Below, in pieces: positions 25,958-59,852 of a DNA stretch of 64,000 nt. Position 1 is the first letter of the stretch. Each line of letters opens with the position of its first letter. A program made the translations under genes and the position numbers. A model generated the notes under the pieces. That model was not told the DNA's origin and did not search any database. It worked only from the letters and a program-made list of their open reading frames with translations. This DNA is from Dehalococcoidia bacterium (GTDB taxonomy: Bacteria; Chloroflexota; Dehalococcoidia; Bin125). Location: contig JAJEJC010000007.1 of assembly GCA_022828105.1 (NCBI GenBank), forward strand, positions 204,885 to 268,884, read 5' to 3'.

Positions 25958-28840
25958 GTGGCCTCACAGCGACCGGCAAGCGCACGCACGACGATTGAGG
26001 CGGCGGCTCAAGCCAATCATGATCGCCGCTTGGTCGACGCTCCGCTGGCGGCCGACGTGCGGCTGCTCAGCAGCATGCTCGGCAACACGATTCGGCGCGT
26101 GGACGGCGATGACGTGTTCAATGCGGTCGAACAGTTGCGCGGCCTCACGCAACGCCGGCGCGGTGTCCGCCAGGACCCCGAGCCGCAACTCACCGCCGAG
26201 ATTGTGCAACTGGTGCACGGCTGGCCGCTCTGGCTGGCGGCCGAGGTCGGCAACGCGTTTCTGACCTACTTCCTGCTGACAAACACTGCGGAGGAAGCTC
26301 ACCGAATTCGGCGTCGACGCTTGCGTTCGAGCAACAATCATGCCGCACCGCGTTCGCTGCCGGCGGTGGTCGAGCAACTCTTGTCCGGCGGCTTCGACGA
26401 CACGGCGATTCGCACACAGGCGGCCGGCATCCACCTGCAACCCGTGTTCACCGCGCATCCGACGGAATCTCAGCGGCTGACCATGCTGGGCACGCTGCAG
26501 GACGTGCACCAGTTGTTGCTTGACCGGGAACATGCGATTCCTGCCGAGCTCGAAGAGATTGACGCCGCGCTGCGCACCCATATCGAGGGGCTCTGGCAGG
26601 CTGATCACCTGCGTCATCGCCGCCCGACCGTGTTGGAAGAGTCGAGGCTGCTGCTGAGGACGTTTGAGACTACGCTGTGGGACGCGGTGCCTGACGTGAC
26701 CGCGCGATTCCGTCGCGCGACCGGCGTCACCGCTGCGGAATCGCCTGCGCCCGTCGTGCTCGGCTCGTGGATGGGCGGCGACGCCGATGGCAATCCGAAC
26801 GTGACGCCGGACTTGACCTGGCAGACCGCGCTGACCATGCGCGCGCGGGTGCTGCGATTGCATGTCCAGGCCGTGCGGGCGATGGACACGATGCTGCCCC
26901 ACTCCGCACGCCGTGTGTCGTCGTCGCCCGGTCTGGAAGAGTCGCTCAAGCGCGACGAGCGGCGCATGCCGAGGATTGAGGACCGGCTCAAGCACCGCAA
27001 CCAGGCCGAACGGTATCGGCACAAGACTCGCTACATGACGGCGAGGCTTCAGGCGACGCTTGAGGCCGACTACGCACTGCTCGACACACGGGCCGCCAAC
27101 ATCCACGACGCGCGGCTGAGCACCGACGAGCCCGACGGCGTGCCCTACGACTCGGCGCAGGAGTTCGTCGACGACCTTGAGTCGATCTCGGAGAGTCTGC
27201 GGCTGCATGGCGCGGACGCCGCCGCGGACACCGTGGTCCAGCCGTTGATCGACCGCGCCCGCGCGTTTGGCTTTCACCTGGCCGCGCTCGACATCCGCGA
27301 ACATGCGGACAGCTTCCATGCGGCCGCCAATGCGGTCCTCGAAGGACTCGACATTCAGCCGCCAGGGGGCAGCTACCTCGACCTGACCAAGCCGCAGCGC
27401 GAGGAGTTCCTGGCCAGGGAGCTGGATCGGGATTACTTCCCAGTCGGCCACGCGATGTCGACGCATGACGACGAAACACTGCGCAGATTCCGCACTGCAC
27501 GCCGCATCCAGCGCATCTGCGGACCCGAAGCGATGCAGACCTGCATCGTCTCGATGAGCGAGACCGCTGCCGACGTGCTCGCGCCGGTACTCGTCGCGCG
27601 GCAGGCGGGACTCAATGACGTCGATCACCGCGCGCCAGGCGGGCAGATTCGCATTGCTCCCCTGTTCGAGCGTGTCGCCGACCTCGATCGGGCGCCGGCC
27701 GCGCTGCGCTCGCTGTTCTCATACGACGCCTACCGTCGCCATCTCAACGCGCATGACGACCTGCAAGAGGTGATGGTCGGCTACTCCGACTCGGCCAAGG
27801 ACGCCGGTGTGCTGCCCTCGCTCTGGGGCCTGTACCGCGCCCAGGAAGCGATGCACGAGGTGGCGCGCGACGCGGGCGTCAAGTTGATGTTCTTCCACGG
27901 CCGCGGCGGCACAGTGAGCCGCGGCGGCGGGCCGTCGCACGACGCAATTCTCGCGCTGCCGCCGCACACCACCGAAGGCGGGATCAAGTTCACCGAGCAG
28001 GGCGAGATGATCCAGTTCACCTACGGGATGCTCGGACTGGCCAAGTGGAATCTCGAGCAGACCCTGGCCGCGTCGTTGGTCAAGCGCTTCGATCGCGATC
28101 ATGACGACACACCGGACGCGGAGCGGGAACGCTATCACGCCGCGATGGACGAACTCTCGGAGATCGCCGAACTCGCCTATCGGTCGAACGTCGTCGAGAA
28201 CCAGGATCTTCACGCCTACTTCCAGCGCGTCACACCGATCGGCATGCTCGGCAATCTCGCGATCGGCTCGCGCCCGACCTTCCGTCCCGGCTCGGACGCC
28301 TCGCTCACATCACTGCGTGCGATTCCCTGGGTCTTTGCCTGGATGCAGACCCGGCACGTGATCACCGGGTGGATGGGCGTCGGCACCGCGCTCGACGAGT
28401 TCTTCAATCGTCACGGCAGCTCCGGCGAAGCCTTGCTCAGGGACATGCGAGACCGCTGGCCGTTTTTCGCCACGCTGCTCTCCAACGTCGAGATGGTGCT
28501 GGCCAAGGCGGATTTCGATGTTGCCGAGCACTATGCGCGGACGCTGGGCGACGGCGACCAGGACCTGCGCACCTTCGGTCGCCTGCGCGACGAATTCGTT
28601 CGCACGGTCAGGATGGTCAATCGGCTGTCGGACCAGGACCGGCTGCTGGACGAGTCGCCCGTCCTGCAACGCTCAATCGCGCTGCGCAATCCTTATGTCG
28701 ACGCGCTGAGCTTCCTGCAAGTCGACCTGCTCAGCCGTATCCGCGACCTGCCCGAGAGTGATCCCGAGTACGCGGACACGCTGGAGGCCATCCTGCGCAG
28801 CGTCAACGGCGTCGCCGCCGGCCTGCGCAACACCGGCTAG
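25958..28840 (+). CDS. ppc: Phosphoenolpyruvate carboxylase (bacterial type)
   Basis: Diagnostic FTAHPTE motif, GYSDSAKDAG, FHGRGGTVSRGGGP, C-terminal ...GLRNTG. GTG 25958 with GAGAGGGA SD upstream; the ORF-track ATG at 25793 would overlap the divergent peptidase gene and adds non-PEPC sequence. Confidence 0.9.
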   Translation: MASQRPASARTTIEAAAQANHDRRLVDAPLAADVRLLSSMLGNTIRRVDGDDVFNAVEQLRGLTQRRRGVRQDPEPQLTAEIVQLVHGWPLWLAAEVGNAFLTYFLLTNTAEEAHRIRRRRLRSSNNHAAPRSLPAVVEQLLSGGFDDTAIRTQAAGIHLQPVFTAHPTESQRLTMLGTLQDVHQLLLDREHAIPAELEEIDAALRTHIEGLWQADHLRHRRPTVLEESRLLLRTFETTLWDAVPDVTARFRRATGVTAAESPAPVVLGSWMGGDADGNPNVTPDLTWQTALTMRARVLRLHVQAVRAMDTMLPHSARRVSSSPGLEESLKRDERRMPRIEDRLKHRNQAERYRHKTRYMTARLQATLEADYALLDTRAANIHDARLSTDEPDGVPYDSAQEFVDDLESISESLRLHGADAAADTVVQPLIDRARAFGFHLAALDIREHADSFHAAANAVLEGLDIQPPGGSYLDLTKPQREEFLARELDRDYFPVGHAMSTHDDETLRRFRTARRIQRICGPEAMQTCIVSMSETAADVLAPVLVARQAGLNDVDHRAPGGQIRIAPLFERVADLDRAPAALRSLFSYDAYRRHLNAHDDLQEVMVGYSDSAKDAGVLPSLWGLYRAQEAMHEVARDAGVKLMFFHGRGGTVSRGGGPSHDAILALPPHTTEGGIKFTEQGEMIQFTYGMLGLAKWNLEQTLAASLVKRFDRDHDDTPDAERERYHAAMDELSEIAELAYRSNVVENQDLHAYFQRVTPIGMLGNLAIGSRPTFRPGSDASLTSLRAIPWVFAWMQTRHVITGWMGVGTALDEFFNRHGSSGEALLRDMRDRWPFFATLLSNVEMVLAKADFDVAEHYARTLGDGDQDLRTFGRLRDEFVRTVRMVNRLSDQDRLLDESPVLQRSIALRNPYVDALSFLQVDLLSRIRDLPESDPEYADTLEAILRSVNGVAAGLRNTG

Positions 28841-28857
28841 TCCCGCTAGCGGGTTCG

Positions 28858-29316
28858 CTACGCAACCACTTCCCAATGGACCAGGGTGAACGGCTCGGTC
28901 TCGTCGCTGCCCTCGTGGTCTTCGAAGACGGGGCGCACTTCCGCGCCGATCTCGACCGTCTGCATCGGGTCGCCGACGAGGTTGCCGACCATCCGCACGT
29001 TTTCGTGGTTGGGCAGCTCAACCAACACGACGAGATACGGGCACGAGTCCTGCAGTGCCGGATGGACCGGATGCCAGACGCGCTCCCACGAGTAGATTCG
29101 GCCGTTGCCCTCAACCGGCTTCCAACCGAGGTCGAAGGAGTGACAGCGGTGGCAGACCCACTCGGGCCCGAACTGGGGCCGGTCGCACGTGTGGCAGTTC
29201 TGGACGAGTAACTCGTGGCGCTTGACGCCCTCCCAGTACTCGGTGTCGAGCCCGTCAATGGCCGGCGCAGGCGCGGGCATACCCTCGCCCAGGTAGTACC
29301 TTCCTGGATTCGCCAT
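28858..29316 (-). CDS. Zn-ribbon OB-fold protein (DUF35 family), partner of SCP-x-type thiolase
   Basis: CxxC...CxxC rubredoxin-like zinc ribbon (CHTCDRPQFGPEWVCHRC) followed by OB-fold; shares its ATG/stop (ATGA) with the downstream thiolase gene. Confidence 0.8.
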   Translation of the reverse strand: MANPGRYYLGEGMPAPAPAIDGLDTEYWEGVKRHELLVQNCHTCDRPQFGPEWVCHRCHSFDLGWKPVEGNGRIYSWERVWHPVHPALQDSCPYLVVLVELPNHENVRMVGNLVGDPMQTVEIGAEVRPVFEDHEGSDETEPFTLVHWEVVA

Positions 29317-30497
29317 TAGAGCACCGCCTCTGAACCGACGATCATGTCGGACACCGGGGTCACCATCGGACCCGAGGCAACCAGCGATACATTCACGTCG
29401 TCAACCTGGTTGCAGGACTCCCCGCGTACCTGGCGCACGGCCTCGATGTTCAGTTCCAGGCCGTGCATGTAGCACTCGGCCAGGTTGCCGCCGCTGGTGT
29501 TGATCGGCATCTTGCCGCTCGGCGCGATCAGGTTTTCGAACGTGATGAAGTCGTTGGCCTCTTCGTAAGAGGTCAGGCCGTGCTCGATGATGCTCATCAC
29601 GACGCCGCCGGTGAAGTTCTCGTAGACCTGCGCGACATCGACCTCTTCCGGCTTGACCTGCGCCATGTCGTACATGCGCGGCGCGACGGTCTTGAAGTTC
29701 GAGGTCGCGTAATCGGTCGCGTTGTGCGAGCCCGATCCGGCCCGGTTGCCCGAGCCGACCGCGCCGCCGAGGAAGTAGACCGGCGTCTTGGCGAAATCCT
29801 TGGCCCGCTCGGCGGAGACGAAGATCATCGCCGCGCCGCCGTCGTTCTCCTGGCAGCAGTCGAACAGGTGGAACGGTTCGACAATCCAGCGCGAGGCGTC
29901 GTAGTCCTCGGGCGTGAGCGGTCGGCCGTACATGACCGCACGCGGGTTGTTCTGCGCGTGGTGATACGAGGCAAGGGAGCAGGCCTTGAGCGCGTCCTGG
30001 GTGATCCCGTGGTCGTCGAACAGCTTGTGGACGCGCATCGCGAAGGACTGCGCCGGCGACATCAATCCGTACGGCGCGGTGTAGGCCTGGTCGCCGCGCA
30101 CGTGCGGGACCCGAGCGCCCTGACCGAAGCGTCCGAACTGCCCCTGCGCGAGACCGCGGAAGACCACGACCGTATCGGCAAGACCGGTTGCCACCGCGGC
30201 CGCCGCATGCGCGCAGGCCGCAGATCCGCCGCCGCCGCCGCCGCCCCACTCCATGTTGGAGAAGCGCAGGTCCTTGATGTCCAGCGCCGCCGCGATCCGC
30301 GACGGATCGTTGCGGTCGTTGGAGTAGGACGCGAAGCCGTCGATCTCGCGCGGGTCGATCCCGGCGTCGGCGCTGGCCTTGAGAATCGCCTCGATCACAA
30401 GCTTGAACTCGGCGTCCGGGGAACGGCCGCGCTTGTAGTAGGTCGTCTCGCCGACACCGATAATGGCGGATTCGCCGCGCATCGTGCGGTTGCCCAT
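29316..30497 (-). CDS. Thiolase-fold lipid-transfer-protein/SCP-x-type thiolase
   Basis: AIIGVGETTYYKRG N-terminus, thiolase fold without classic Cys-His-Cys spacing of biosynthetic thiolases; Gly-rich GGGGGGGS segment. Start chosen at MGNRTMRGE (strong GGAAGGA SD) rather than the TTG at 30518. Confidence 0.8.
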   Translation of the reverse strand: MGNRTMRGESAIIGVGETTYYKRGRSPDAEFKLVIEAILKASADAGIDPREIDGFASYSNDRNDPSRIAAALDIKDLRFSNMEWGGGGGGGSAACAHAAAAVATGLADTVVVFRGLAQGQFGRFGQGARVPHVRGDQAYTAPYGLMSPAQSFAMRVHKLFDDHGITQDALKACSLASYHHAQNNPRAVMYGRPLTPEDYDASRWIVEPFHLFDCCQENDGGAAMIFVSAERAKDFAKTPVYFLGGAVGSGNRAGSGSHNATDYATSNFKTVAPRMYDMAQVKPEEVDVAQVYENFTGGVVMSIIEHGLTSYEEANDFITFENLIAPSGKMPINTSGGNLAECYMHGLELNIEAVRQVRGESCNQVDDVNVSLVASGPMVTPVSDMIVGSEAVL

Positions 30498-30558
30498 CTC
30501 TCTAGTCCTTCCCTGCAAATCGTTGCTGGCAGTTTAGGGGATGCCGGGAAATCGGCGG

Positions 30559-33045
30559 TTACTGGAGCACGCCGGCAACCAGTGACTCCGTGATCTCCTC
30601 GTCAGTGGCCGAGAGAATCTCCGACAGCACGTAGTGCGTGTGCTCACCGATTGCCGGTGCGGCGCGGCGCAGCTTCGCGGTGCCGCCCGAGAACTTGGTC
30701 ACCAGGCCGTCGTACGGTGTCGGCCCCATCACCGAGTGATTGAGCGTGACAAAGAAGTTGCGATGCGTGAGCTGCGCATCTTCATAGAGGTCGGAGGGCC
30801 ATTCGACCATCGACGCCGGCACGCCGGCCGCGGTCAGACAGTCGACGACCGCATCCGCTGTCTGCGGCGCGCACCATTCGGCGAGCGCCGTCTCAATCTC
30901 TGCCTTGGCGGCAATCCGAGCCGACAGGTCGTCGTAGTCGGCGCTTGACCAGCGCTCCAGTCCCGCCGCATCGCGGAGGGATTGCCATTGCGCGGCGGTC
31001 TCCGTCGCGATCGCCACGTAGCGTTCACCCTCGCCGACACGGAACACGCCATTGGGCGCCGCATACATCGAGCCATGGCCAACCGCTTGCGCGATACGGC
31101 CGTTCTCGATGTAGTCAAGCAACAGCGGCGCGGCGAAGTGAACTCCCGCCTCACTCTGCGCCAGGTCGATGTACTGCCCTCTGCCGGTCAGGTCCCGATG
31201 TCGAATCGCCGCAGCCAAGACGCCCGAACCGAAACGCGGATTGATGAAGTCGGTGTACGCGCCCCAGGTGCCCGACGGCTGACGGTCGGGCCAGCCGGTG
31301 ATCCGATGCAGACCCGACAGGCAGGCGCCCTGCAAGCCGAAACCGGGATAGGTCGACTCCGGACCGGACTGGCCGCGCAGGCAGGTGCTGAGCATGATCA
31401 GTTCTGGTCGGTCTTGGCTGAGCGTGGCATAGTCGAAGCCGAATTGCTTCATCGTGCCCGGGGTGAACGACTCGACCACCACGTCAGCCCAGTCGATGAG
31501 CTGACGGGCGTAGTCGCGACCTTGTTCGGTGTCGAGTCGGAGCGCCACGCCGATCTTGGAAGAGTTGAAGTTGGCCATGAACTGCGCGCGGTCCATGCCC
31601 GGTTCGTTGTCCTTGAACGGTGGAGCAAGACGCAACACGTCCGGCCGCGTTGCCGACTCGATGTGCACGACGGTCGCGCCATGGTCGGCCATCGACTTGG
31701 AGATCAGCGGACCGACGCCGACCCATGCGAAGTCGGCGATCTTGACGCCCGACAGCGCGCCGCCGTCCTCGCCGCGCACGCCGTTGGACGAGATCGAAGC
31801 CCGCGCCGCCCGCTTGGGCGCGCGGCCAACTTCGGCCAGCAGATGTTGGTCCTGGCCCAGCGTCGGCGCAGGTCGCGTGAGTTGCAGCGGCGTCCTGGAG
31901 AGCTTGGCGAACGGTCCCGGATAACGGTGTCCGTCGAGATCGACCCAGAAGCCGCGGGCGGCGAGGTGCGTGTCGTTGGCGATGTCTTCCATCGTGTAGA
32001 GCGGAGCCATCATGAAGCTGTCGCGGACCGCGCGCTCGAAGCACTCGGCCATCGTCTTCTTGGCCACAAAGTGATGCAGATTCTCGGTCGCGATCGCGAC
32101 TTGTCTTCCGACTTCCGCAGGATCTTCGGTGACCAGGCGGGCGACGTCGGCCGCCCACTCGTCGATGTTTGCGCCTTCCATTTCGCCGATCAGCTCGCCC
32201 TCTTCCTCGATCCATTTCAGGACCAGCGTCGAGTGACGCAGTCCCAGTCCACCCGGCACAATGCTGAACACGACGTAGCCGTCGAGGCAAGGATGCACGC
32301 CCATTACGGCGCCGCCGAGATTGTCGCCGCCGACGTTGCGTTGCGCGCAGGTACCTGGCGGATCGCCGCCGGTGTTGGGCGGGAATCCGGTTGCATGCAT
32401 CAATGTCCAGACGACTGCGGCCTGCATCGAAACATCAAGGTGCTGACCCAGCCCCGACAGTTCGCGCTCACGCAACGCAATCGACGTATCGGCGGCGGCC
32501 TGCACGCCGGAATGAATCGATGCCTGCGGCAATCCCACCGGAACCGGTGGTCGGTCGCCGTCTCCTTGCAGGCCAACCAGGCCACCCGCGGCCTCAAGCG
32601 TCAGATCGGTCGCCGGTCGGTCGGCATGGGGTCCGTCCTGGCCGTATGGCGTCACCGACACGTAGATCAGGTCGGGCAACTCGCCCTTGACATCGTCGTA
32701 GCCCAGTCCCCACTGCGACATCGTGCCGGGATCGAACGACTCGATCAGCACATCTGCGGTCGCAAGCAGAGCGCGGAAGTCCTCGCGTCCCTGCGAAGAT
32801 TCCAGGTCGATCACGACGCTGCGCTTGCCCAACCCCATCTGCGCCCAATAGAGCGAACGGCCTGGCTCCGCGTCGCTGAACGGAGGCATCCGGCGGGCGG
32901 CGGCGCCTGTCGGCGGTTCGACCTTGATTACTTCCGCTCCCATGTCGGCGAGTACTCGTCCGGCCATCTCCGCTCGAGGCGTCGCCAGATCGAGCACTCG
33001 CACGCCGTCCAGCAGCGTGTCCGACCCTGCAGTCGTCATCCTCAT
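30559..33045 (-). CDS. Tandem-fused double family-III CoA-transferase (two CaiB/BaiF domains in one 828-aa polypeptide)
   Basis: Two complete CaiB/BaiF-like units: (1) GVRVLDLATPRAEMAGRVLADMGAEVIKVEPP...DVLIESFDPGTMSQWGLGYDDV and (2) GVKIADFAWVGVGPLISKSMADHGATVVHIES...DVVVESFTPGTMKQFGFDYATL. Confidence 0.8.
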   Translation of the reverse strand: MRMTTAGSDTLLDGVRVLDLATPRAEMAGRVLADMGAEVIKVEPPTGAAARRMPPFSDAEPGRSLYWAQMGLGKRSVVIDLESSQGREDFRALLATADVLIESFDPGTMSQWGLGYDDVKGELPDLIYVSVTPYGQDGPHADRPATDLTLEAAGGLVGLQGDGDRPPVPVGLPQASIHSGVQAAADTSIALRERELSGLGQHLDVSMQAAVVWTLMHATGFPPNTGGDPPGTCAQRNVGGDNLGGAVMGVHPCLDGYVVFSIVPGGLGLRHSTLVLKWIEEEGELIGEMEGANIDEWAADVARLVTEDPAEVGRQVAIATENLHHFVAKKTMAECFERAVRDSFMMAPLYTMEDIANDTHLAARGFWVDLDGHRYPGPFAKLSRTPLQLTRPAPTLGQDQHLLAEVGRAPKRAARASISSNGVRGEDGGALSGVKIADFAWVGVGPLISKSMADHGATVVHIESATRPDVLRLAPPFKDNEPGMDRAQFMANFNSSKIGVALRLDTEQGRDYARQLIDWADVVVESFTPGTMKQFGFDYATLSQDRPELIMLSTCLRGQSGPESTYPGFGLQGACLSGLHRITGWPDRQPSGTWGAYTDFINPRFGSGVLAAAIRHRDLTGRGQYIDLAQSEAGVHFAAPLLLDYIENGRIAQAVGHGSMYAAPNGVFRVGEGERYVAIATETAAQWQSLRDAAGLERWSSADYDDLSARIAAKAEIETALAEWCAPQTADAVVDCLTAAGVPASMVEWPSDLYEDAQLTHRNFFVTLNHSVMGPTPYDGLVTKFSGGTAKLRRAAPAIGEHTHYVLSEILSATDEEITESLVAGVLQ

Positions 33046-33106
33046 ACTCCCATCCGATGTCTGGCACAGATCGCGTTCAAGATACCGAAGCGTCCCCGTT
33101 AAGTGA

Positions 33107-33337
33107 CTACGTGACCAGGAACACGCGAATCAGCACGGAGAAGACGCCGAAGAGCAGCAGCGCGCCCAGGATCCACCAGAGCAGCTTCGGCGCCTCTTCG
33201 CGCGGCTCGTCGGCGCGATTGCCGGGATCAATCCAGCGGGCGTGGCGTTCAGGTGGCGGACGACGGCGTCTGGCACGTGGTGAATCGGGCGCTGGCGGCG
33301 GCCACAATTCGCGGTCTGAGTCTGCTTGATTTGCCAT
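33107..33337 (-). CDS. Hypothetical small tail-anchored membrane protein (76 aa)
   Basis: Arg/Pro-rich N-terminus and single C-terminal TM (LLWWILGALLLFGVFSVLIRVFLV); lies directly upstream of the fused CoA-transferase gene on the same strand. Weak support. Confidence 0.3.
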   Translation of the reverse strand: MANQADSDRELWPPPAPDSPRARRRRPPPERHARWIDPGNRADEPREEAPKLLWWILGALLLFGVFSVLIRVFLVT

Positions 33338-33448
33338 CTGACCATCTCGCCGACGCGCGCTTAGCTGTAGGCGCGGTCAGTTCAGCCAGTCTAACCACGC
33401 GCCGGCTCGCAATGGCAGGCACGAAACCGCCTCTGCGCATAGCGGCGC

Positions 33449-34396
33449 TTGCCTCTACCCTCTGTCCTGAAGCCCCAGCGGGCCATGTGCGCAATCGGAG
33501 ATGCGGAGCCTCACGTGTCCAGGATTCTCGTCACTTCCACGCTGTCTGGCGACGGCAAGTCAGTCGTCGCGGCCGGAATCGCTTCGGCGTTGCGTTCGAG
33601 CGGGTCCACGGTGCGGCTCGAACGGATCGACGACTCGGAGTCCGCCGTCGCCGACGCAGCGCAGTTGTCGCAACTCAACGGCGTGCGAAGCAGCGGACGG
33701 CCGGTTGCAGCGTCGGACATCGAGTTCGACACCGACCACACGGTGATTGAGGCTGACGCCGCAGAGCGCATCGACCGTGACCGTACCGTGCTCGTGGTTC
33801 GACACGGTGAGGCCGACGACGACACGGTCGCCCGGGCGTTGGAGTCGCTCGCGCCGGACCTGGTGGTCGTCAATGCGGTGCCGCAACAGGGAGACCAAGC
33901 CGCGGTCGCGCGGATCAGTGGCCTCGGCGGAAGCGTGGTCTGCGCGTTGCCGCAGGACCGCCACCTCGCCGCGCCGACCGTCAAGGACATCGCGCCCGCC
34001 ATCGACGGCGCGCTCTCCGGCGACGAAGCGTTGTTTAAGGAGGCTTCTCGCGACCTCGTGATCGGGCCGGTCAGCGCGCACGAGGGCATGGACTACTTCC
34101 GCAAGTATCCCGACAAGACGCTGATTACCCGCCACGATCGGATCGATATCGCCCTGGGCGCGCTCGACTACGAGCCGCTCTGCCTGATCCTGGCCGGCGG
34201 CGAGCCGACGCTGCCCTACGTTGCGCAACGCGCCGAGCGGGAGTCGTTCGCCCTGATTACCACCGCAATGACGACGCTGGAGGCGGTTGAGGCAGTCGGC
34301 GAGCTGTACGGACGCGCGGCGTTCGTGGGGCAACGCAAGCTGGACACCGCTATTGAGCTGGTCGGCAGCGCCGTGGCCGTCGACTCGCTGCTCTAG
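33449..34396 (+). CDS. DRTGG / phosphotransacetylase-N-terminal-like (AAA_26-type P-loop-like) domain protein
   Basis: ILVTSTLSGDGKSVVAAGIASAL resembles the N-terminal domain of Pta/CobQ-type proteins, followed by a DRTGG-like region (LITRHDRIDIALGAL, LILAGGE). Start uncertain; GTG near 33515 possible. Confidence 0.45.
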   Translation: MPLPSVLKPQRAMCAIGDAEPHVSRILVTSTLSGDGKSVVAAGIASALRSSGSTVRLERIDDSESAVADAAQLSQLNGVRSSGRPVAASDIEFDTDHTVIEADAAERIDRDRTVLVVRHGEADDDTVARALESLAPDLVVVNAVPQQGDQAAVARISGLGGSVVCALPQDRHLAAPTVKDIAPAIDGALSGDEALFKEASRDLVIGPVSAHEGMDYFRKYPDKTLITRHDRIDIALGALDYEPLCLILAGGEPTLPYVAQRAERESFALITTAMTTLEAVEAVGELYGRAAFVGQRKLDTAIELVGSAVAVDSLL

Positions 34397-35532: not shown

Positions 35533-36726
35533 ATGTCGCCCCTTCCCGCCACGAGTGACGCCGGAAGGGAACTGATCGAGCGCCTGGCTCCGCATCGGGA
35601 AAGACTGGCGGATCTCGCGATCACGCATGATCGCGAGGCCTCGTTTCCGTTTGCGTCCTTCGAGTTGCTGCGCGAAATCGGCTGGTTCTCCGCGCCGATC
35701 CCGCTCGAGTACGGCGGTGCCGAGTGTTCGCTGACCGATCTCGTCGCCGCGCAAACCGCGCTGGCCAGGGTCGACATGGCGCTCGCCTTCTCCTGCGGCA
35801 TGCACCTCATGTCGGTCGGTTCGGAGCGCTCCAATCGCAACTGGCCGGACCAGTTGCGCGAGCGCATTTTTCGCTCGGTGGTCGAGGATGGCGCGCTCTG
35901 CAACCAGGTCGCCACGGAGCCCGATCTCGGATCGCCCCAGGGCGGCGGACGCCCGCAGACTGCGCTCACGCCTGACGGTCCGGGACGCTGGCGTATCAAC
36001 GGACGCAAGTCGTTCACCACGCTCGCGCCGGCCCTGACCTGGTTCCTGACCTACTGCGCGATTGAAGATGGATCCGGAATGCTGGCGCGGGTGGCCGTAC
36101 ATCGCGACTCGCCCGGCTTGCGGATTGAGGAGACCTGGGATGTCGTCGGCTTGCGGGCGACGGGATCGCACGACGTCTGGTACGAGAACGTCGCGGTCAC
36201 GGACGACGAGTTCCTGGTTCGTCAGGATCCCTCCCAGACAGGACAGCGTCACGGCGACTTCGCCTGGTTCGCGCTGCTCGTCGCTGCGGCTTCGTTGGGC
36301 GTCGCAGAGGCGGCGCGCGAGTACACCGTCGATTTCGCCCGTCATCGGCGACCTTCTGGCGCGCCCGGTCCGATCGGCAGCATTCCGACAGTGCGCGCCC
36401 AGGTTGGCGAGATCGATCTGCGCCTGATGTCGGCTCGGGCGTTGCTGCACGAGACCGCATCGGCATGGGATCGGCTTGAGAACGATCAGCGCTTCAGGCT
36501 CGGACCGCGCGTCGCCGCGGCGAAGCTCCATGCCGGCGATATCGCCGTCGATGTGGTCGACCGCTGCATGAGGCTGGTTGGCGGCGTGTCATTGCATCGC
36601 TCGCAACCATTGGAGCGCTTCTACCGGGACGTACGAGGACCGCTCCACAACCCACCGATTGCCCCGCGAGGTCTGGAACTGATCGCGGCGGACGCCCTCG
36701 ACCCGCTGCCCGACCTCGACTCGTAG
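35533..36726 (+). CDS. Acyl-CoA dehydrogenase family protein
   Basis: ACAD three-domain architecture; catalytic-region motifs LTYCAIEDGSG, C-terminal DRCMRLVGGVSLHRSQPLERFYRDVRG. Confidence 0.85.
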   Translation: MSPLPATSDAGRELIERLAPHRERLADLAITHDREASFPFASFELLREIGWFSAPIPLEYGGAECSLTDLVAAQTALARVDMALAFSCGMHLMSVGSERSNRNWPDQLRERIFRSVVEDGALCNQVATEPDLGSPQGGGRPQTALTPDGPGRWRINGRKSFTTLAPALTWFLTYCAIEDGSGMLARVAVHRDSPGLRIEETWDVVGLRATGSHDVWYENVAVTDDEFLVRQDPSQTGQRHGDFAWFALLVAAASLGVAEAAREYTVDFARHRRPSGAPGPIGSIPTVRAQVGEIDLRLMSARALLHETASAWDRLENDQRFRLGPRVAAAKLHAGDIAVDVVDRCMRLVGGVSLHRSQPLERFYRDVRGPLHNPPIAPRGLELIAADALDPLPDLDS

Positions 36727-37875
36727 CTACTTCTTGAACGTTGACGTGAGGCGTTGAGCAAGTCCCATTCGATGCTGAACTGCCCCGCCGCCGCTCAGCG
36801 ACATCCAACGAAGCTCTCGCAACCATCGCTCCAGGGGCAAGTCCGCTGATCCGCCGGCTGGACCGTGCAGGTCCATTGCGCGCTCCACGACTGAGCATGC
36901 CGCATCCAGCGCGAAGGCCAGCGATGCGAGGCCCAGTTCCTCAATCCGGTCCGCCGCGGACAGATAGAGCGTGCGCGACGCGGAGACGGTAATCTCGTTG
37001 TCGGCGAGCGCCAGCCTGGCCCATTCACCCTGCGCGAGCGGCGCGCCGTGCTCGCGACGCGACCAGACCACGCCGCGGCACATGTCCTGGGCGGCCGACG
37101 CGATGCCCGTCAGATGGGCCGATGTGAACGTCCTCCGGCGCAGCACAAGGCTGTTGGCGAACGACGGTCCGGCGTCAATCTCGCCGATCATGTTTGACTC
37201 CGGCAACTTGACCGCCGAGAGATTGAGTTCCATCGTGTCGCGGCCCGCCGCGATCGTCGGCCATGACCTCCAGCGCTGGAAGCCAACTCGATCAGTCTCG
37301 ACAACGATTGCCGAGATGCCGGTTCTCTCACCCGGCGCTGTTTCCGTGTTGCAATAGACGATGCCGAAGTCGGCGTTGACGGCGTCGGCGACGAACAGCT
37401 TGGTCCCGTCCAGCATCCAGCCGAGGGGGTGCTTCCGGGCCCTAATGCGGACGCCGTCGGTGGGCAGGAACGACAGGTCAGGATCGTCCAGGCCGCGAAA
37501 ACAGGCGGCTTCGCGCCGCAGCAGCGGCTCCAGGAATCGCTCACGCTGTTCGTCGCTGCCGGCGTAGAGCTGCTGCGGCGGGTCGGGATCGAAGAGGCCG
37601 TAGGCGGGATTGAGCGCGCCGGCTCGATGCTGGGAGAGCTCTTCGGCGATCCGGAGACGGTCGGCGTCGGGGAGGTCGACCTGCGGATCCGTCGAGGCGT
37701 CGCGCGGAGCCATCAGGTGGTCGATGCCGAGCTTCGCGGCGCGGTCGAGCAGCGCTGTGAACACGTCATCCGGCAATCGGTGGGCGTTCGGCTCGAGCCG
37801 GCGTTCCTGCAGCCAGATCTCGTTGCGGACGAACCGGCGGACGGCCTGAACGAACAGATCGAGTGCTTCGTTCAC
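36727..37875 (-). CDS. Acyl-CoA dehydrogenase family protein
   Basis: ACAD-like N-terminal helical domain, middle beta-barrel (FVADAVNADFGIVYCNTE) and C-terminal helical domain (ERAMDLHGPAGG...RWLRELRWMSLSGGGAVQHRMGLAQRL). Convergent with, and abutting, the other ACAD. Confidence 0.85.
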   Translation of the reverse strand: MNEALDLFVQAVRRFVRNEIWLQERRLEPNAHRLPDDVFTALLDRAAKLGIDHLMAPRDASTDPQVDLPDADRLRIAEELSQHRAGALNPAYGLFDPDPPQQLYAGSDEQRERFLEPLLRREAACFRGLDDPDLSFLPTDGVRIRARKHPLGWMLDGTKLFVADAVNADFGIVYCNTETAPGERTGISAIVVETDRVGFQRWRSWPTIAAGRDTMELNLSAVKLPESNMIGEIDAGPSFANSLVLRRRTFTSAHLTGIASAAQDMCRGVVWSRREHGAPLAQGEWARLALADNEITVSASRTLYLSAADRIEELGLASLAFALDAACSVVERAMDLHGPAGGSADLPLERWLRELRWMSLSGGGAVQHRMGLAQRLTSTFKK

Positions 37876-37893
37876 GTTCCACTCACCAACCTA

Positions 37894-39108
37894 TTACCCG
37901 AGTGCGCCGCTCTCGGCCAGCGCCGCGATCTCGTCGTCCGACAGGCCGGTCTCGCGCAGTACGTCGTGGGTGTGCTGTCCGGTCTTCGGCGCCGGACCGC
38001 GCGGTCCGATCTCAGCCCCTTCGATCTCGAACGGTGTGTTCAACGTGCGGAACGGACCTTCGGGCCCGTCAATCACGCTCCAGGCGTTCATCTCCTCCAT
38101 CTGCGGATCGTGAATCAGCTCCGGAAGCTCGGCAACCGGCGCCCAGGTCAACGCCTCGGCGTCGAGACGCGGAACCCACTCGGCGAGCTGCTTCGAGCGG
38201 AACGTGGCAACGATCTCGGAAGTGAGTTCGCGACTGTGTTCCGCCCGTCCAAGCAAGGTCGAGAAACGCTCATCTCCGGCCAGATCCTCGCGGCCCAGCG
38301 CCCTGCAGGTCGGTTGCCAGTAACGATCGCCGGTCGGCATGACCAACATCAGCCAGCGACCGTCGGCGGTCTCGTAGGAGTTGAACAGCGGATTGCCCGG
38401 CTGCACGCGGTCGATTCGTTGCGGCTGCTGCTCGGTGATCAACGCCGCCGAGACATCCGCCCCGATCGTCCACGCGCCGGTCCGTTGCAGCGTGACCTCG
38501 ACGTACTGGCCCTCGTCGGTCAGATCGCGCAGACGCAGCGCCGCAAGCGTGCCCGAAAGCAGATTGAGCGCCGTCGCATGATCGCCTTGTCCAGGACGGC
38601 AGGGCATCGGCGGACCGCCCGGCTCGCCGATCAGACTCATGATCCCCGATCGCGACCAGAACGCCGAGTAGTCGAAGGCTGTCTTGGCGTTGTCGGGCCC
38701 GCGCGTTCCGTAGCCGGTGAGCACCACGTAGATCAGACCCGGATTGACATCCTGCAATGACTCGCGGGTCAGGTCGTAGCGGGCGATACGCGGGGCGGTC
38801 AGGTTGGTGATGAAGATGTCGGCGCCGGCGACCATCCGCTTGACGACCTCGCTCGCGCCCGGACGCTCCAGCGAGAGCGCGACCCCGCGCTTGCCGCGGT
38901 TGTCCAGCTCGAACGCGGCATCCACGTCTGTCTCAGGGTCGAAGTCTGACTTCTGGCCGCGCATCAGCGTGGTGCGCCAGGCGTCGCCCACGGGATTCTC
39001 GATTTTGACCACGTCGGCGCCCAGATCGGCCATCAAGGCCGCCGCCGATGGCGCCGCCAACCAGTTCGCAACCTCGACAACCCGAATTCCCTCGAGCGGC
39101 GCAACCAT
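37894..39108 (-). CDS. Family-III CoA-transferase (CaiB/BaiF)
   Basis: GIRVVEVANWLAAPSAAALMADLGADVVKIENP...DIFITNLTAPRIARYDL. Start ATG 39108 (MVAPLEG) with GAAGGG SD; the longer ORF-track start is unlikely. Confidence 0.85.
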   Translation of the reverse strand: MVAPLEGIRVVEVANWLAAPSAAALMADLGADVVKIENPVGDAWRTTLMRGQKSDFDPETDVDAAFELDNRGKRGVALSLERPGASEVVKRMVAGADIFITNLTAPRIARYDLTRESLQDVNPGLIYVVLTGYGTRGPDNAKTAFDYSAFWSRSGIMSLIGEPGGPPMPCRPGQGDHATALNLLSGTLAALRLRDLTDEGQYVEVTLQRTGAWTIGADVSAALITEQQPQRIDRVQPGNPLFNSYETADGRWLMLVMPTGDRYWQPTCRALGREDLAGDERFSTLLGRAEHSRELTSEIVATFRSKQLAEWVPRLDAEALTWAPVAELPELIHDPQMEEMNAWSVIDGPEGPFRTLNTPFEIEGAEIGPRGPAPKTGQHTHDVLRETGLSDDEIAALAESGALG

Positions 39109-39182
39109 AGCCCGACCCTTCGTTAGCTTGCAGTCCGATCCTACTTGCCGCGACACCGACCCAGAATCAACAGGAGCCGATC

Positions 39183-40547
39183 ATGCAACACCGACCGACC
39201 GCCTCGCGCGTACCCAATCCCGGAATCCGCGAACTGTTCACCCGCGAAGCGCGCTGGCAGTCCTGGCTCGATGTCGAGGCCGCATTGGCTCGGGCCGAGG
39301 CCGAACTGGACATGATTCCCGCCGACGCCGCCGTGCAGATCGCCGAACACTGCCGGCTCGAATTGCTGGACATGGAGAAGATCGAAGCGATCCTGGTCGT
39401 CACCGCGCACCCGCTCGTGCCGTTGATCTGGGAGCTGGACCGCATCCTCGGCGACGAGATCGGCGGCTACGTCCACTGGGGCGCGACGACGCAGAACATC
39501 ACCCAGACCGGCGACATCCTGCAGTTGCGCCGCGCGCACGCGATCATCCTCGGCCAGATCGGCCAGCTGCTTGCTCTGCTCGCGCCGTTGGCCGAGCGTC
39601 ACGCCGATGTTCCCTGCGCCGGACGCACGCACGGTCAGCACGCGGTACCGGCCACCTTCGGCTACAAGGTCGGCGCATGGATCGATGAACTCTGCCGCCA
39701 TGTCGAGCGGCTGCGCGACGCCGAGCCGCGCGTCTTCGTGGCCATGCTCGGCGGCGCGGCCGGCACGCTCGCATCGTTCGGCGCGCCCGGTCTCGCCGTA
39801 CAGGAGGGCATGGCCCGCCACCTCGATCTGCTGCCGATGCCGGTTCCCGGACGCACCAGCCACGACCACCACGCCGAGTACGCCGCCATCCTCGCGATGC
39901 TCGCCGCCACCTGCCGCAAGATCGCCGATGAGACCTACACGCTGATGAAGCCCGAGTTCGGCGAGATCGAGGAACCCGTGCCTCCCGGCACGGTCGGCAG
40001 CAGCACCATGCCGCAGAAGCGCAATCCCAAGCTCTCGCAGGACATCCGCGCCGCAACGGCGCAGGTCACGACGCTCTTTCCGCTCGCGCTCGACGCGATG
40101 CGCACCGAGCACGAAGCCGACGGCTCGACCAGCGTCATGATCGAGCGCGTCGTCCATGGATCGATCGAACTGGTCGGCGACATCCTCGCCCGCATGATCG
40201 TGCTCTTCGACGGCATCGACGTGAAGCCGGATCGGATGAGACAGAATCTCGATCTCTCCGGCGGCCTGATCATGAGCGAGCGGATCATGCTCGCACTCGG
40301 CGAGAAGGTCGGACGACAGCGCGCCCACGACATTGTCTACGAGCACGCGCAGGACGCCGCCGTGCAGGGAGTCTCGTTCCGCGACCTGCTGGTCGGCGAC
40401 GAGGAAGTCCGCCGGCATCTGTCGGAGCGAGAACTTGACGATCTGCTCGATCCTGCCGGTTACACCGGCGCCTGCGGCGAAATCGCCCGAGCGCAGGCCC
40501 GACGAGCGCGCGAGCTCGCCGAACGCCTAGACTCGGCCCAGAACTAA
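39183..40547 (+). CDS. Class-II fumarate-lyase superfamily protein (adenylosuccinate lyase / 3-carboxy-cis,cis-muconate cycloisomerase-like)
   Basis: GRTHGQHAVPATFGYK and the family signature GSSTMPQKRNPKLSQ. Assignment to a specific member is not possible by eye. Confidence 0.75.
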   Translation: MQHRPTASRVPNPGIRELFTREARWQSWLDVEAALARAEAELDMIPADAAVQIAEHCRLELLDMEKIEAILVVTAHPLVPLIWELDRILGDEIGGYVHWGATTQNITQTGDILQLRRAHAIILGQIGQLLALLAPLAERHADVPCAGRTHGQHAVPATFGYKVGAWIDELCRHVERLRDAEPRVFVAMLGGAAGTLASFGAPGLAVQEGMARHLDLLPMPVPGRTSHDHHAEYAAILAMLAATCRKIADETYTLMKPEFGEIEEPVPPGTVGSSTMPQKRNPKLSQDIRAATAQVTTLFPLALDAMRTEHEADGSTSVMIERVVHGSIELVGDILARMIVLFDGIDVKPDRMRQNLDLSGGLIMSERIMLALGEKVGRQRAHDIVYEHAQDAAVQGVSFRDLLVGDEEVRRHLSERELDDLLDPAGYTGACGEIARAQARRARELAERLDSAQN

Positions 40548-40574
40548 GCAGCAGAACGGCAGAGGAGGCGCGCC

Positions 40575-41258
40575 ATGCTGAAGTGGGTCGTTCCGGTTAT
40601 CAAGCAGGAGGGTGTCGATCGCGAAGCCTTCTACGAATTCTGGCGCTGCGTCCACGCGCCGCACGTCGCCAATCTGGCCAAACCGGAGCGCTACTGCGTC
40701 ACGTTCTTCGAGAGCGCTGCCTCGCTGGGCGGCGCGCCGGCAGCGGACGAGATGGCCTACGACGGCCTGGCCGAGCTGTGGTTCCGCGACTTCGATCACT
40801 TCAACGACGCACTTGGCGACCACCGAGGCGCGCTGCGTACGATTGACGGCTTCAACCAGCTCACGGAGCCGCTCTCGGACTCGCTGTTCACGACCGAGAA
40901 CATCATCGTCGACTCGCATCCGCCCGCGGACGCCTGCAAATGGGTCGCGTTCGTGAAGAAGGGCGACGGAGTCAGCCGCGACGACCTGTTCGCCGCCTGG
41001 AGCGACGGCCACTCGCCGCGCGTCGCCAACACAATCGCCCGCGCCGAGGGCCGCTGCCTGCGCTACACGACTTCGCACGCCGACCAGGGTGCGGAGGGCG
41101 GTCCGTGGGACGGCATCGCCTCGCTCTGGTACGCCGACGCCGACGCCGCAGCGCGAGGCCTGCCGCCGTCCGACGAACCGGGCGACCCGTTCCCGCCGTT
41201 GATCGACGCCGCCGCCACGGTGATCCTGCAGGGACGAGAAATCGTCGTGGTCTCCTAG
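40575..41258 (+). CDS. Tandem EthD-domain protein
   Basis: Two ~100-aa halves each resembling the EthD/dimeric alpha-beta-barrel stress-responsive fold (MLKWVVPVIKQEGVDREAFYEFW... and KWVAFVKKGDGVSRDDLFAAW...). Confidence 0.55.
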   Translation: MLKWVVPVIKQEGVDREAFYEFWRCVHAPHVANLAKPERYCVTFFESAASLGGAPAADEMAYDGLAELWFRDFDHFNDALGDHRGALRTIDGFNQLTEPLSDSLFTTENIIVDSHPPADACKWVAFVKKGDGVSRDDLFAAWSDGHSPRVANTIARAEGRCLRYTTSHADQGAEGGPWDGIASLWYADADAAARGLPPSDEPGDPFPPLIDAAATVILQGREIVVVS

Positions 41259-41291
41259 ACTCAACACAGACCGACACGAACGGAGCCGCAC

Positions 41292-42629
41292 ATGAGATTC
41301 GGAATCTTCTACGAACACCAACTGCCCAAGCCCTGGAGCGAGGGTCAGGAACAGCAACTCTTCCAGGACGCCCTCGATCAGGTAGAACTGGCCGACCAGC
41401 TCGGCATCGACCACGCCTGGGAAGTCGAGCACCACTTCCTCGAGGAGTATTCCCACTCTTCCGCGCCCGAGGTGTTCCTGGCCGCCGCATCGCAGCGCAC
41501 GCAGAACATCCGCCTCGGACACGGCATTGTGCTGATGCCGCCGGGATACAACCACCCGGCGCGCGTCGCCGAGCGGATCGCGACGCTCGATCTGGTTTCC
41601 AACGGCCGGGTCGAATTCGGCACGGGCGAGTCGGCCTCGCGGGCCGAGCTTGAGGGCTACATGGTCAACCCCGAGGAACGCCGCTCGATGTGGCTTGAGA
41701 CCGTCGAGCAGGTCGCCAACATGCTGGCGATGAATCCCTACCCCGGCTACGAGGGCAAGTACTTCTCGATGCCGACCCGCAACGTGGTGCCCAAGCCGGT
41801 GCAAAAGCCCCACCCGCCGCTCTGGGTCGCCTGCTCCAACCGCGACACGATTCACCTCGCCGCCAAACTCGGCATCGGCGCGCTGACGTTCGCCTTCATC
41901 GATCCGGCCGAGGCCGAGCACTGGGTCAACGACTACTACGAGACGATCAAGACCGAATGCGTGCCGATCGGCCACACCGTGAACGCGAACATCGCCATGG
42001 TCTCCTCGTTCTCGGTGCATCCCGACGCCGACGAGGCCGAACGGCGCGGCGGCGACGGCTTCCGCTTCTTCCAGTTCGCCCTCGGCCACCACTACGCCGC
42101 CGGCATGCACAAGCCGGGCCGGACCAACATCTGGAAGGCCTGGGAGCAACTCCGCGACACCTGGCCGCGACAGGGCGGCGAGGGCGGCATCGGCACGCCC
42201 GACGAGCTGCGCGAGCACCTGCGCATCTTCTCCGACTGCGGCGTTGACCAGTCGGTCTTCATCCAGCAGGCCGGCAACAACCGTCACGAGCACATCTGCG
42301 AGTCGCTGGAGATCTTCGCCCGCGACGTGATGCCCGAATTCAAGGAGTTCGAGGCCGAGCGCGTCGCGAAGAAGGAGGAAGAACTCGCGCCGTATATCGA
42401 GGAAGCGTTCAAGCGCAAAACCGAACGCAACGAGATGATGGCCGAGCTCTCCGACGAGGACATTCCCGTCTACCCGCCCTACGGCTTCGACGTGGTCACC
42501 AGCTCCAACCGTCTCAGCGAGGAGTACCACCACGAGGAGGCCGAGAAGCGAGCCCAGGAACAGGCTGCCCGATTCGAGGAGATGAAGAAGACGGCCAACC
42601 TCGCCGTCGAACTGGGGGCGCTGGACTAG
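41292..42629 (+). CDS. LLM-class flavin/F420-dependent oxidoreductase with ~100-aa charged helical C-terminal extension
   Basis: MRFGIFYEHQLPKPWSEG...IDHAWEVEHHFLEEYSHSSAPEVFLAAASQRTQNIRLGHGIVLMPPGYNHP...TGESASRAELEG: luciferase-like TIM barrel. C-terminal 100 aa rich in E/K/R (EFEAERVAKKEEELAPYIEEAFKRKTERNEMMAEL...). Confidence 0.8.
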   Translation: MRFGIFYEHQLPKPWSEGQEQQLFQDALDQVELADQLGIDHAWEVEHHFLEEYSHSSAPEVFLAAASQRTQNIRLGHGIVLMPPGYNHPARVAERIATLDLVSNGRVEFGTGESASRAELEGYMVNPEERRSMWLETVEQVANMLAMNPYPGYEGKYFSMPTRNVVPKPVQKPHPPLWVACSNRDTIHLAAKLGIGALTFAFIDPAEAEHWVNDYYETIKTECVPIGHTVNANIAMVSSFSVHPDADEAERRGGDGFRFFQFALGHHYAAGMHKPGRTNIWKAWEQLRDTWPRQGGEGGIGTPDELREHLRIFSDCGVDQSVFIQQAGNNRHEHICESLEIFARDVMPEFKEFEAERVAKKEEELAPYIEEAFKRKTERNEMMAELSDEDIPVYPPYGFDVVTSSNRLSEEYHHEEAEKRAQEQAARFEEMKKTANLAVELGALD

Positions 42630-59801: not shown

Positions 59802-59852
59802 GCGCCGATTACTTCAGCTTTCTGACAATCCTTGCGGAAACGGAGACCACTC

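Follow-up and report, generated by a model that had tools for sequence, protein, structure and literature searches.

A fused family-III CoA-transferase beside a cysteine-less thiolase-fold protein and a DUF35 partner in a Dehalococcoidia genome: a candidate activate-and-cleave module

Introduction

The breakdown of recalcitrant dissolved organic matter in the sea has been ascribed to SAR202-type Chloroflexota, whose CaiB/BaiF paralogs, or family-III coenzyme A (CoA)-transferases, are strongly expanded (PMC5395668, PMC6306507). A contig of a Dehalococcoidia bacterium (GenBank JAJEJC010000007.1) raises the question of what one such transferase may work with. Within the 64-kb stretch of this contig analysed here (the window), three genes in a row encode a tandem family-III CoA-transferase of 828 amino acids (aa), a thiolase-fold protein and a free-standing DUF35 zinc-ribbon protein. 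An earlier note, written from the DNA letters, had read this trio as a Bbs-like but distinct arrangement, with a fused, heterodimer-like CoA-transferase alongside a thiolase/DUF35 pair resembling BbsAB of benzylsuccinate beta-oxidation. Do the three proteins act together, and if so, by which chemistry?

We propose, with rather more confidence than doubt, that the trio makes up an "activate, then cleave" module, in which the CoA-transferase loads an acid with CoA and the thiolase-fold/DUF35 pair acts as an aldolase that splits a carbon-carbon bond. The distinct points of the locus are a fused E/F-type (BbsE-like/BbsF-like) transferase beside an aldolase-type, not a thiolase-type, partner, the free-standing state of the DUF35 protein, and a YENF/Asn variant of the aldolase active site.

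Results

The thiolase-fold protein and its DUF35 partner

The thiolase-fold protein matches PF22691 (Thiolase_C_1) with 92 bits, and every solved relative has a thiolase fold. The best of these is the steroid side-chain aldolase TcLtp2 (PDB 6ok1_A; 250 bits, E = 3.5e-73, ~45% identity over the full length), whereas BbsB reaches 54 bits in the same PDB search. Canonical thiolases use two cysteines; in TcLtp2, the base is Tyr294 (in the motif YDHF), the acid is Tyr344, and His296 belongs to the oxyanion hole (PMC12329534). The window protein carries the motifs W84-G7-S92, Y292ENF and C342-Y343-MHG. Its residue at the thiolase nucleophile position (C-x-S/T-G) is a glycine within the W-G7-S loop, and the acid/base cysteine of the HDCF motif is replaced by asparagine (YENF). 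A cysteine does occupy the nucleophile position in an archaeal thiolase (7yvy) and in the true thiolase of a Rhodococcus locus described below. Tyr292 and Tyr343 align with Tyr294 and Tyr344 of Ltp2 and are invariant in 120 of 120 homologs, as are the W-G7-S, YENF and second-Tyr motifs, and both thiolase cysteines are absent throughout this set.

With both catalytic cysteines gone, thiolysis via an acyl-enzyme is not expected, and retro-aldol cleavage of a beta-hydroxyacyl-CoA is the best-supported prediction for the chemistry of this protein. The scores, the missing cysteines and the retained Ltp2 tyrosines together overturn the earlier assignment to an SCP-x-type, BbsB-like thiolase. As judged from sequence, an orthogroup that spans several phyla and has no characterised member is set apart by this YENF/Asn version of the Ltp2 active site; the window protein shares 59-72% identity with its representatives in Gammaproteobacteria, Acidobacteriota and Betaproteobacteria. 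Databases name this group "acetyl-CoA acetyltransferase", a name in need of correction, as its members have neither of the cysteines that thiolase chemistry requires.

The DUF35 protein matches PF12172 (zf-ChsH2; 25.8 bits, cut-off 23.2) and PF01796 (OB_ChsH2_C; 46.7 bits, cut-off 27.1), and the zinc-ribbon cysteines C41-x2-C44...C55-x2-C58 can be seen in its translation. Its best solved match is 9myr_B (E = 1e-18), and the DUF35 part of ChsH2 (6ok1_B) is matched at E = 5e-16. Of 83 homologous loci, 79 have a DUF35 gene directly downstream of the thiolase-fold gene, and the remaining four end at a contig edge.

These results bear directly on the first interpretation of the locus, in which a BbsAB-type thiolase would cleave a 3-oxoacyl-CoA thiolytically after BbsEF-like activation. 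It can draw on the BbsE-like and BbsF-like halves of the CoA-transferase, on weak matches of the DUF35 protein to BbsA (21.6 bits, cut-off 250) and of the thiolase-fold protein to BbsB (62.8 bits, cut-off 750), and on two acyl-CoA dehydrogenase genes 2.5-5 kb upstream. The absence of both cysteines from all homologs and the far better match to Ltp2 speak against it, however, as does the lack of a BbsH-type hydratase and a BbsCD-type dehydrogenase in the window. The hydratase and 3-hydroxyacyl-CoA dehydrogenase of a nearby Bbs-like beta-oxidation set were sought across all 64 kb and did not turn up. We therefore consider thiolytic beta-oxidation very unlikely.

The fused CoA-transferase

The 828-aa protein contains two complete PF02515 (CoA_transf_3) matches (E = 1e-165). 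Its halves are 29% identical, and hence not the near-identical products of a recent duplication of a homodimeric enzyme, and no ortholog of known, ordinary substrate was found; on both of these points the fused-heterodimer idea of the earlier note holds. The best full-length solved match of the N-terminal half (N-half) is BbsE (9fn0_A, 139 bits, vs 97 bits for 9fn0_B), and that of the C-terminal half (C-half) is BbsF (9fn0_B, 226 bits, E = 7e-66, vs 108 bits for 9fn0_A). Furthermore, the N-half is 38% identical to subunit 1 of a CoA-transferase pair from Aromatoleum EbN1, and the C-half is 37% identical to subunit 2 of that pair and 34% identical to BbsF. A phylogeny of the halves, as the note had suggested, agrees with this pairing: in a neighbour-joining tree all N-halves group with BbsE and EbN1 subunit 1, and all C-halves with BbsF and EbN1 subunit 2.

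Conservation of the catalytic aspartate was scored in an alignment of 137 two-domain proteins with identities down to 31%. The nucleophile site of the C-half is Asp in 136 of the 137 (Asp599 in the window protein). The equivalent site of the N-half is Asp in two, and mostly Tyr, Phe or Trp (Ser176 in the window protein), so that 134 family members have Asp in the C-half without Asp in the N-half. BbsE has Tyr at this position. In Frc the nucleophile is D169, in agreement with variant names in PDB titles. In BbsF, D178 carries the CoA adduct (title of PDB 9fol). As both residues map to Asp599, the C-half, not the N-half, would be the catalytic one. The aspartate in the conserved motif ATD147L of the N-half was also considered and dismissed, since the Frc and BbsF residues map to a later site.

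An AlphaFold2 model of the fused protein, built from 58 sequences, is compact (pLDDT 89.9, pTM 0.93), and its halves superpose on BbsF (target-normalised TM 0.94) and BbsE (0.82) as their best structural matches. With diverged paralogous halves, an N-half nearest to BbsE, a C-half nearest to BbsF and an Asp in the C-half only, the protein behaves, in alignment and model, as a single-chain E/F-type heterodimer with one predicted active-site Asp. The fusion in itself is not a new arrangement. In an exhaustive search with clusters drawn at 50% identity, 126 of the best 150 representatives have the two-domain length of 760-880 aa.

The characterised two-domain type-III enzymes are DddD and PtmU4 (PMC6006322), and DddD is the best Swiss-Prot match of some SAR202 CaiB/BaiF proteins (PMC5395668). 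The fused protein might accordingly be a DddD-like CoA-transferase/lyase, or a PtmU4-like enzyme with non-canonical chemistry, that performs both transfer and cleavage, leaving the thiolase-fold/DUF35 pair unrelated. A catalytic Asp in the C-terminal domain would suit such an enzyme, the catalytic residue of DddD being Asp602. On the other side, the window has no BCCT transporter gene and no dddB-, dddC- or dddR-like genes, and the nearest relatives of both halves are BbsEF and the Aromatoleum EbN1 pair, which are ordinary E/F-type CoA-transferases for dicarboxylates. DddD itself falls outside the main two-domain clade (PMC6006322). The NCBIfam matches include no DddD family. Of the readings considered in this study, we find this one the least probable.

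Gene neighbourhoods of the transferase and the pair

Neighbourhoods were compared in a genome scan run with the closer fused sequences, on a genome sample biased towards Chloroflexota. Of the 43 loci whose fused CoA-transferase is at least 69% identical, 40 show the CoA-transferase gene followed by the thiolase-fold gene and DUF35; one of the three exceptions (L043) has neither of the other genes, and two (L013 and L032) break off ahead of DUF35. This thiolase-fold orthogroup also stands beside at least five other, scattered two-domain CoA-transferase lineages (L059, L061/L091, L074, L145 and L150). Among the 38 loci outside the clade three co-occurrences were seen, where a rough estimate gives ~0.25 expected by chance.

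Two of these neighbourhoods hold additional genes. On the metagenome contig of L145 (6032-11808), a divergent two-domain CoA-transferase (28% identity) is followed by a FAS1_DH_region hotdog protein, a MaoC-like protein, the thiolase-fold ortholog and DUF35. A ChsH1/ChsH2-like hydratase pair thus stands between the CoA-transferase and the thiolase-fold gene, which makes L145 the fullest form of the module found. On the related contigs L091 (9056-9883) and L061 (5569-6421) a GNAT-like acetyltransferase open reading frame (ORF), apparently frameshifted in L061, lies between the fused CoA-transferase and the thiolase-fold gene.

A number of observations weigh against a working link between the transferase and the pair. 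The whole region is syntenic inside the clade of the window, and adjacency there could be mere inheritance. A sister clade of the fused CoA-transferase (59-61% identity) has no thiolase-fold gene, nor have about 35 of 38 more distant CoA-transferase loci, and fused CoA-transferases at 52-61% identity mostly stand without the thiolase-fold/DUF35 pair, adjoining acyl-CoA dehydrogenase, enoyl-CoA hydratase, MaoC and electron-transfer flavoprotein genes. Conversely, when loci are centred on the thiolase-fold gene, 78 of 83 encode no two-domain CoA-transferase within 6 kb. One to three opposite-strand genes of the Uma2 family (putative restriction endonucleases) sit, in several relatives, exactly between the CoA-transferase and thiolase-fold genes, meaning that co-transcription is not obligatory. 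The thiolase-fold protein also evolves much more slowly, at 88-99% identity vs 69-92% for the CoA-transferase. Two further points concern the proposed chemistry: the oxyanion-hole His296 of Ltp2 is replaced by an invariant Asn294 in the window protein, and neither an enoyl-CoA hydratase of the ECH or MaoC type nor a 3-hydroxyacyl-CoA dehydrogenase is encoded in the 64-kb window. The spacer between the CoA-transferase and thiolase-fold genes ranges from ~60 nucleotides (nt) to 2.7 kb in relatives, and the site of the Uma2 genes looks like a recurrent insertion hotspot.

Such observations would suit proteins that are neighbours and not partners. The thiolase-fold/DUF35 pair would then be an autonomous, widely conserved unit of two genes working with other activating enzymes, and the fused CoA-transferase a SAR202-type paralog of another pathway, perhaps one that includes the nearby acyl-CoA dehydrogenases and single-domain CoA-transferase. 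The documented expansion of CaiB/BaiF paralogs in SAR202 (PMC5395668) points the same way, as does the commonest extra neighbour of the pair across phyla, an Amidohydro_2 protein of ~400 aa found in 27 of 83 loci of the metagenome scan (L101, L113, L124, L132 and 23 others). This explanation does not readily account for the repeated occurrence of the orthogroup, above the chance estimate, beside different family-III CoA-transferase lineages, nor for the tightly overlapping operons of the three gene kinds in Rhodococcus, Paraburkholderia, Variovorax, Delftia and Burkholderia. We consider it unlikely, although it carries real weight.

Outside Chloroflexota, where its product is the commonest partner of the pair, the Amidohydro_2 gene shares the strand of the pair and sits immediately behind DUF35 or ahead of the thiolase-fold gene. 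A three-way link via this protein was considered and set aside, as it adjoins a fused CoA-transferase in one convergent Myxococcota locus (L067) and has no homolog in the window.

Equivalent gene sets in cultured bacteria

The combination of a family-III CoA-transferase, a thiolase-fold protein and DUF35 recurs in other phyla. On plasmid pRop44186_a of Rhodococcus opacus (L175, 7091-11091), four overlapping genes encode an F-type CoA-transferase, an E-type CoA-transferase, a Cys-less lipid-transfer protein and a zinc-ribbon protein. The lipid-transfer protein has the motif YDCF and keeps the second Tyr. The same cluster holds P450, ferredoxin, short-chain dehydrogenase and acyl-CoA dehydrogenase genes, with a second pair, of an OB-fold protein and a true thiolase, downstream. 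Paraburkholderia caribensis MBA4 has genes for E-type and F-type CoA-transferases, a thiolase-like protein (YDSF) and a DUF35-like protein, and its thiolase-fold gene overlaps the second CoA-transferase gene.

Closer orthologs of the thiolase-fold protein, 59-63% identical, are encoded in Variovorax paradoxus, Delftia acidovorans and Burkholderia plantarii, in operons of a CoA-transferase gene, the thiolase-fold gene and an OB-fold gene with overlaps of 4-8 nt. In these clusters (L172-L174), genes for a Rieske oxygenase, a PDR/VanB reductase, a tripartite tricarboxylate transporter (TTT) binding protein (not in Burkholderia) and a FadR regulator are followed by the three genes. A second, racemase-sized family-III protein is also encoded, Variovorax and Delftia add an FAD oxidoreductase and a nitroreductase, and the Delftia cluster adjoins an IS1071 transposase gene. 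By analogy, the logic of these clusters resembles the removal of ibuprofen-type side chains. An assignment of their CoA-transferases to the E and F types was rejected, because both kinds retain the Asp, which makes them ordinary single-domain types, one of racemase size.

Recurrence of the trio in three phyla outweighs the negative observations, with the gene sets of cultured bacteria weighing most, and for this reason we favour functional coupling of the CoA-transferase with the aldolase pair as the somewhat more probable case.

Organisation and surroundings of the locus

The trio of minus-strand ORFs that the earlier note had described is present in the window (Table 1). The share of G and C at third codon positions (0.78-0.89 across the three genes; overall GC of the window ~66%) supports their coding status. 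Relatives of the CoA-transferase are 826 aa long, and its true start may therefore be the second ATG, at 33039, which would give a protein of this length. For the thiolase-fold gene, the ATG at 30497 with GGAAGGA upstream is the most likely start, rather than the TTG at 30518 of the ORF list. The junction of this gene with DUF35 reads TAATG, with one shared base, in place of the ATGA overlap that had been claimed. Translational coupling consequently stands for the thiolase-fold and DUF35 genes but not for the CoA-transferase gene, whose stop sits 61 nt before the thiolase-fold start. Simple scans of 28500-33600 gave no promoter-like or terminator-like sites.

Table 1. Positions of the trio, its parts and selected features of related loci. 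Positions refer to the window unless a locus is named.
Feature	Position	Strand	Remarks
Two-domain (tandem) family-III CoA-transferase	30559..33045	-	828 aa; two PF02515 matches
CoA-transferase N-terminal half, residues 1 to ~415	31801..33045	-	BbsE-like, nucleophile-less
CoA-transferase C-terminal half, residues 429-828	30562..31761	-	BbsF-like, predicted catalytic half
Asp599 codon, predicted nucleophile, GAYTD599FINP	31249..31251	-	Aligned with BbsF NYTD178H
61-nt spacer between CoA-transferase and thiolase-fold genes	30498..30558	-	GGAAGGA before ATG, by sequence reading
Thiolase-fold protein, Ltp2 aldolase type, 393 aa	29319..30497	-	PF22691 Thiolase_C_1; no catalytic cysteines
Free-standing DUF35 protein, 152 aa	28858..29316	-	Cys4 zinc ribbon and OB fold; PF12172, PF01796
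Uma2 insertions in relatives	L004 12508-13155; L038 12484-13978; L039, L041, L042	opposite	
Betaproteobacterial loci	L172 Variovorax paradoxus CP063167; L173 Delftia acidovorans NZ_CP065697; L174 Burkholderia plantarii NZ_CP066800		Catabolic clusters on plasmids or chromids

A short ORF of 76 aa (33107-33337, minus strand), whose product has a hydrophobic helix at its C-terminus, lies 61 nt upstream of the CoA-transferase gene on the same strand. It has no Pfam match; the relatives L004-L006 have a called ORF of 74-77 aa in this position. A DRTGG-domain gene diverges upstream of the trio, and the DUF35 end faces a convergent phosphoenolpyruvate carboxylase gene.

The nearest relatives of all three proteins come from metagenome-assembled genomes of Dehalococcoidia/Chloroflexota. 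Many of these carry isolate names such as SB0664, IRC and RHO, which we take to indicate a sponge origin, and the host is probably a marine or sponge-associated, SAR202-like member of the Dehalococcoidia. Other genes of the window encode CofD (F420 biosynthesis), three luciferase-like oxidoreductases, two acyl-CoA dehydrogenases and a single-domain family-III CoA-transferase, and no short-chain dehydrogenase gene is found among the window genes. This content fits a SAR202-type lifestyle with strong CaiB/BaiF expansion. A block conserved across the clade (35533-42629) comprises two tail-to-tail acyl-CoA dehydrogenases, a single-domain family-III CoA-transferase, an adenylosuccinate-lyase-family protein, an EthD protein and a luciferase-like monooxygenase, and may represent a second CoA-dependent catabolic unit.

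The window also encodes a second DUF35/SCP-x-type thiolase-fold pair on the plus strand (59385-61055), made up of a DUF35 protein of 138 aa (59385-59801) and a thiolase-fold protein of 407 aa (59832-61055). Here the gene order is reversed relative to the trio, with DUF35 first, as in BbsAB. The thiolase-fold protein, in which the motif reads YDAF, falls into another subfamily near PDB 4u4e; the presence of a nucleophile Cys is ambiguous in its alignment.

Discussion

From the domain identities, residue patterns and gene neighbourhoods described above we infer a set of activities, a coupling, a CoA donor and a substrate range that would fit together as follows. The single-chain E/F-type CoA-transferase would have one active site, in which Asp599 of the C-half acts as nucleophile and the Asp-less N-half provides a partner surface. 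It would move CoA from a donor thioester, such as succinyl-CoA or acetyl-CoA, to a free carboxylic acid without the use of ATP. The DUF35 protein, with its zinc ribbon and OB fold, would hold and shape the thiolase-fold protein, as in Ltp2-ChsH2(DUF35), Sal-Shy(DUF35) and IpfDE. With Tyr292 as base and Tyr343 as acid, the thiolase-fold protein would then carry out retro-aldol cleavage of a beta-hydroxyacyl-CoA to a ketone or aldehyde and acetyl- or propionyl-CoA. There is a precedent in IpfDE, which releases propionyl-CoA from ibuprofen-derived CoA esters (PMC9195938). The short acyl-CoA released in this way could serve as the next CoA donor.

Given that the window encodes no hydratase, the beta-hydroxyl group would either be present in the acid already or be added by enzymes encoded elsewhere. 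Candidate substrates are branched, alicyclic or aryl-substituted acids, as proposed for the catabolism of dissolved organic matter by SAR202.

A broader proposal can be made more tentatively, and we regard it as possible but doubtful. The thiolase-fold/DUF35 pair may represent a widespread family of acyl-CoA retro-aldolases (members from Chloroflexota, Gammaproteobacteria, Betaproteobacteria and Acidobacteriota share ~60-70% identity, and the motifs W-G7-S, YENF and NLAECYMHGL do not vary). Its substrate would be a beta-hydroxyacyl-CoA that is abundant in nature and probably branched or ring-bound. In Dehalococcoidia of the sea and of sponges this family would have been linked to a single-chain E/F-type CoA-transferase, so that two enzymes could split recalcitrant carboxylic acids without ATP and recycle the released acyl-CoA as donor.

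The locus gives one of the expanded SAR202 CaiB/BaiF paralogs a concrete candidate partner, a predicted thiolase-fold aldolase without catalytic cysteines together with its DUF35 protein. If the activate-and-cleave reading is true, it adds an ATP-free way of activating and cleaving acids, and the Ltp2/Sal/IpfD type of aldolase reaches beyond the side chains of steroids and drugs. The gene sets of cultivable Rhodococcus, Variovorax, Delftia and Burkholderia could serve to find the substrate.

Comparison with known systems

Tandem CaiB-like domains joined by a poorly conserved linker are shared with DddD and other two-domain enzymes (PMC6006322); in DddD the domains span residues 1-416 and 439-821 (PMC7174347). 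DddD is reported as an outgroup to the other two-domain proteins (PMC6006322), and the window has no gene context of dimethylsulphoniopropionate catabolism or thioacid biosynthesis.

A closer parallel to the fused protein is BbsEF, the succinyl-CoA:(R)-benzylsuccinate CoA-transferase (9fn0, 9fol), with which it shares the family-III fold, the paralogous units and an Asp in the F-type unit only. The order of the halves, BbsE-like then BbsF-like, also matches the gene order bbsE, bbsF. Unlike BbsEF, the window units are fused in one 828-aa chain, their identity to it is just 32-34%, the bbs operon context (BbsG, BbsH, BbsCD) is missing and the thiolase-fold neighbour is not BbsB-like.

The closest unfused relative found in a plasmid collection is the pair on plasmid 2 of Aromatoleum aromaticum EbN1 (L171, 7001-9405), whose two genes lie side by side in the order of the N-half and the C-half (38% and 37% identity) and repeat their Asp-less/Asp pattern. 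In contrast to the window protein, the two subunits are encoded by separate genes, beside two genes for UbiD-family decarboxylases and a UbiX gene. This is probably the anaerobic o-phthalate cluster, with a succinyl-CoA:phthalate CoA-transferase and a phthaloyl-CoA decarboxylase.

The Rhodococcus opacus and Paraburkholderia caribensis sets resemble the trio as a whole, in that they combine E- and F-type CoA-transferases with a Cys-less thiolase-fold protein and a DUF35-like gene. They differ in having separate CoA-transferase subunits (F then E in Rhodococcus), in thiolase-fold proteins that are just 34-38% identical to that of the window, and in their surroundings of P450, short-chain dehydrogenase and acyl-CoA dehydrogenase genes; these sets are likewise uncharacterised.

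For the cleavage step, the bile-acid aldolase Sal-Shy(DUF35) (9myr) and IpfDE offer the same logic: once the substrate has been activated with CoA, a thiolase-fold protein with DUF35 takes a short acyl-CoA side chain off the beta-hydroxyacyl-CoA. Sal differs in its residues, with Tyr302 and Cys304 (YDCY) and a Gln at the second tyrosine position, and the Ipf pathway differs in activating its substrate with a CoA ligase rather than a CoA-transferase.

The nearest match of all for the pair is Ltp2-ChsH2(DUF35) (6ok1), which shares the thiolase fold without a nucleophile Cys, both catalytic tyrosines and the DUF35 zinc-ribbon/OB partner. The two nevertheless part in several respects. YDHF is replaced by YENF in the window protein, and an invariant Cys precedes the second Tyr. 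The DUF35 protein of the window is free-standing and not the C-terminus of a MaoC hydratase, and no ChsH1/H2, ChsE1/E2 or steroid ring-degradation genes lie near the trio. The window protein instead falls into a separate orthogroup, 60-70% identical across phyla.

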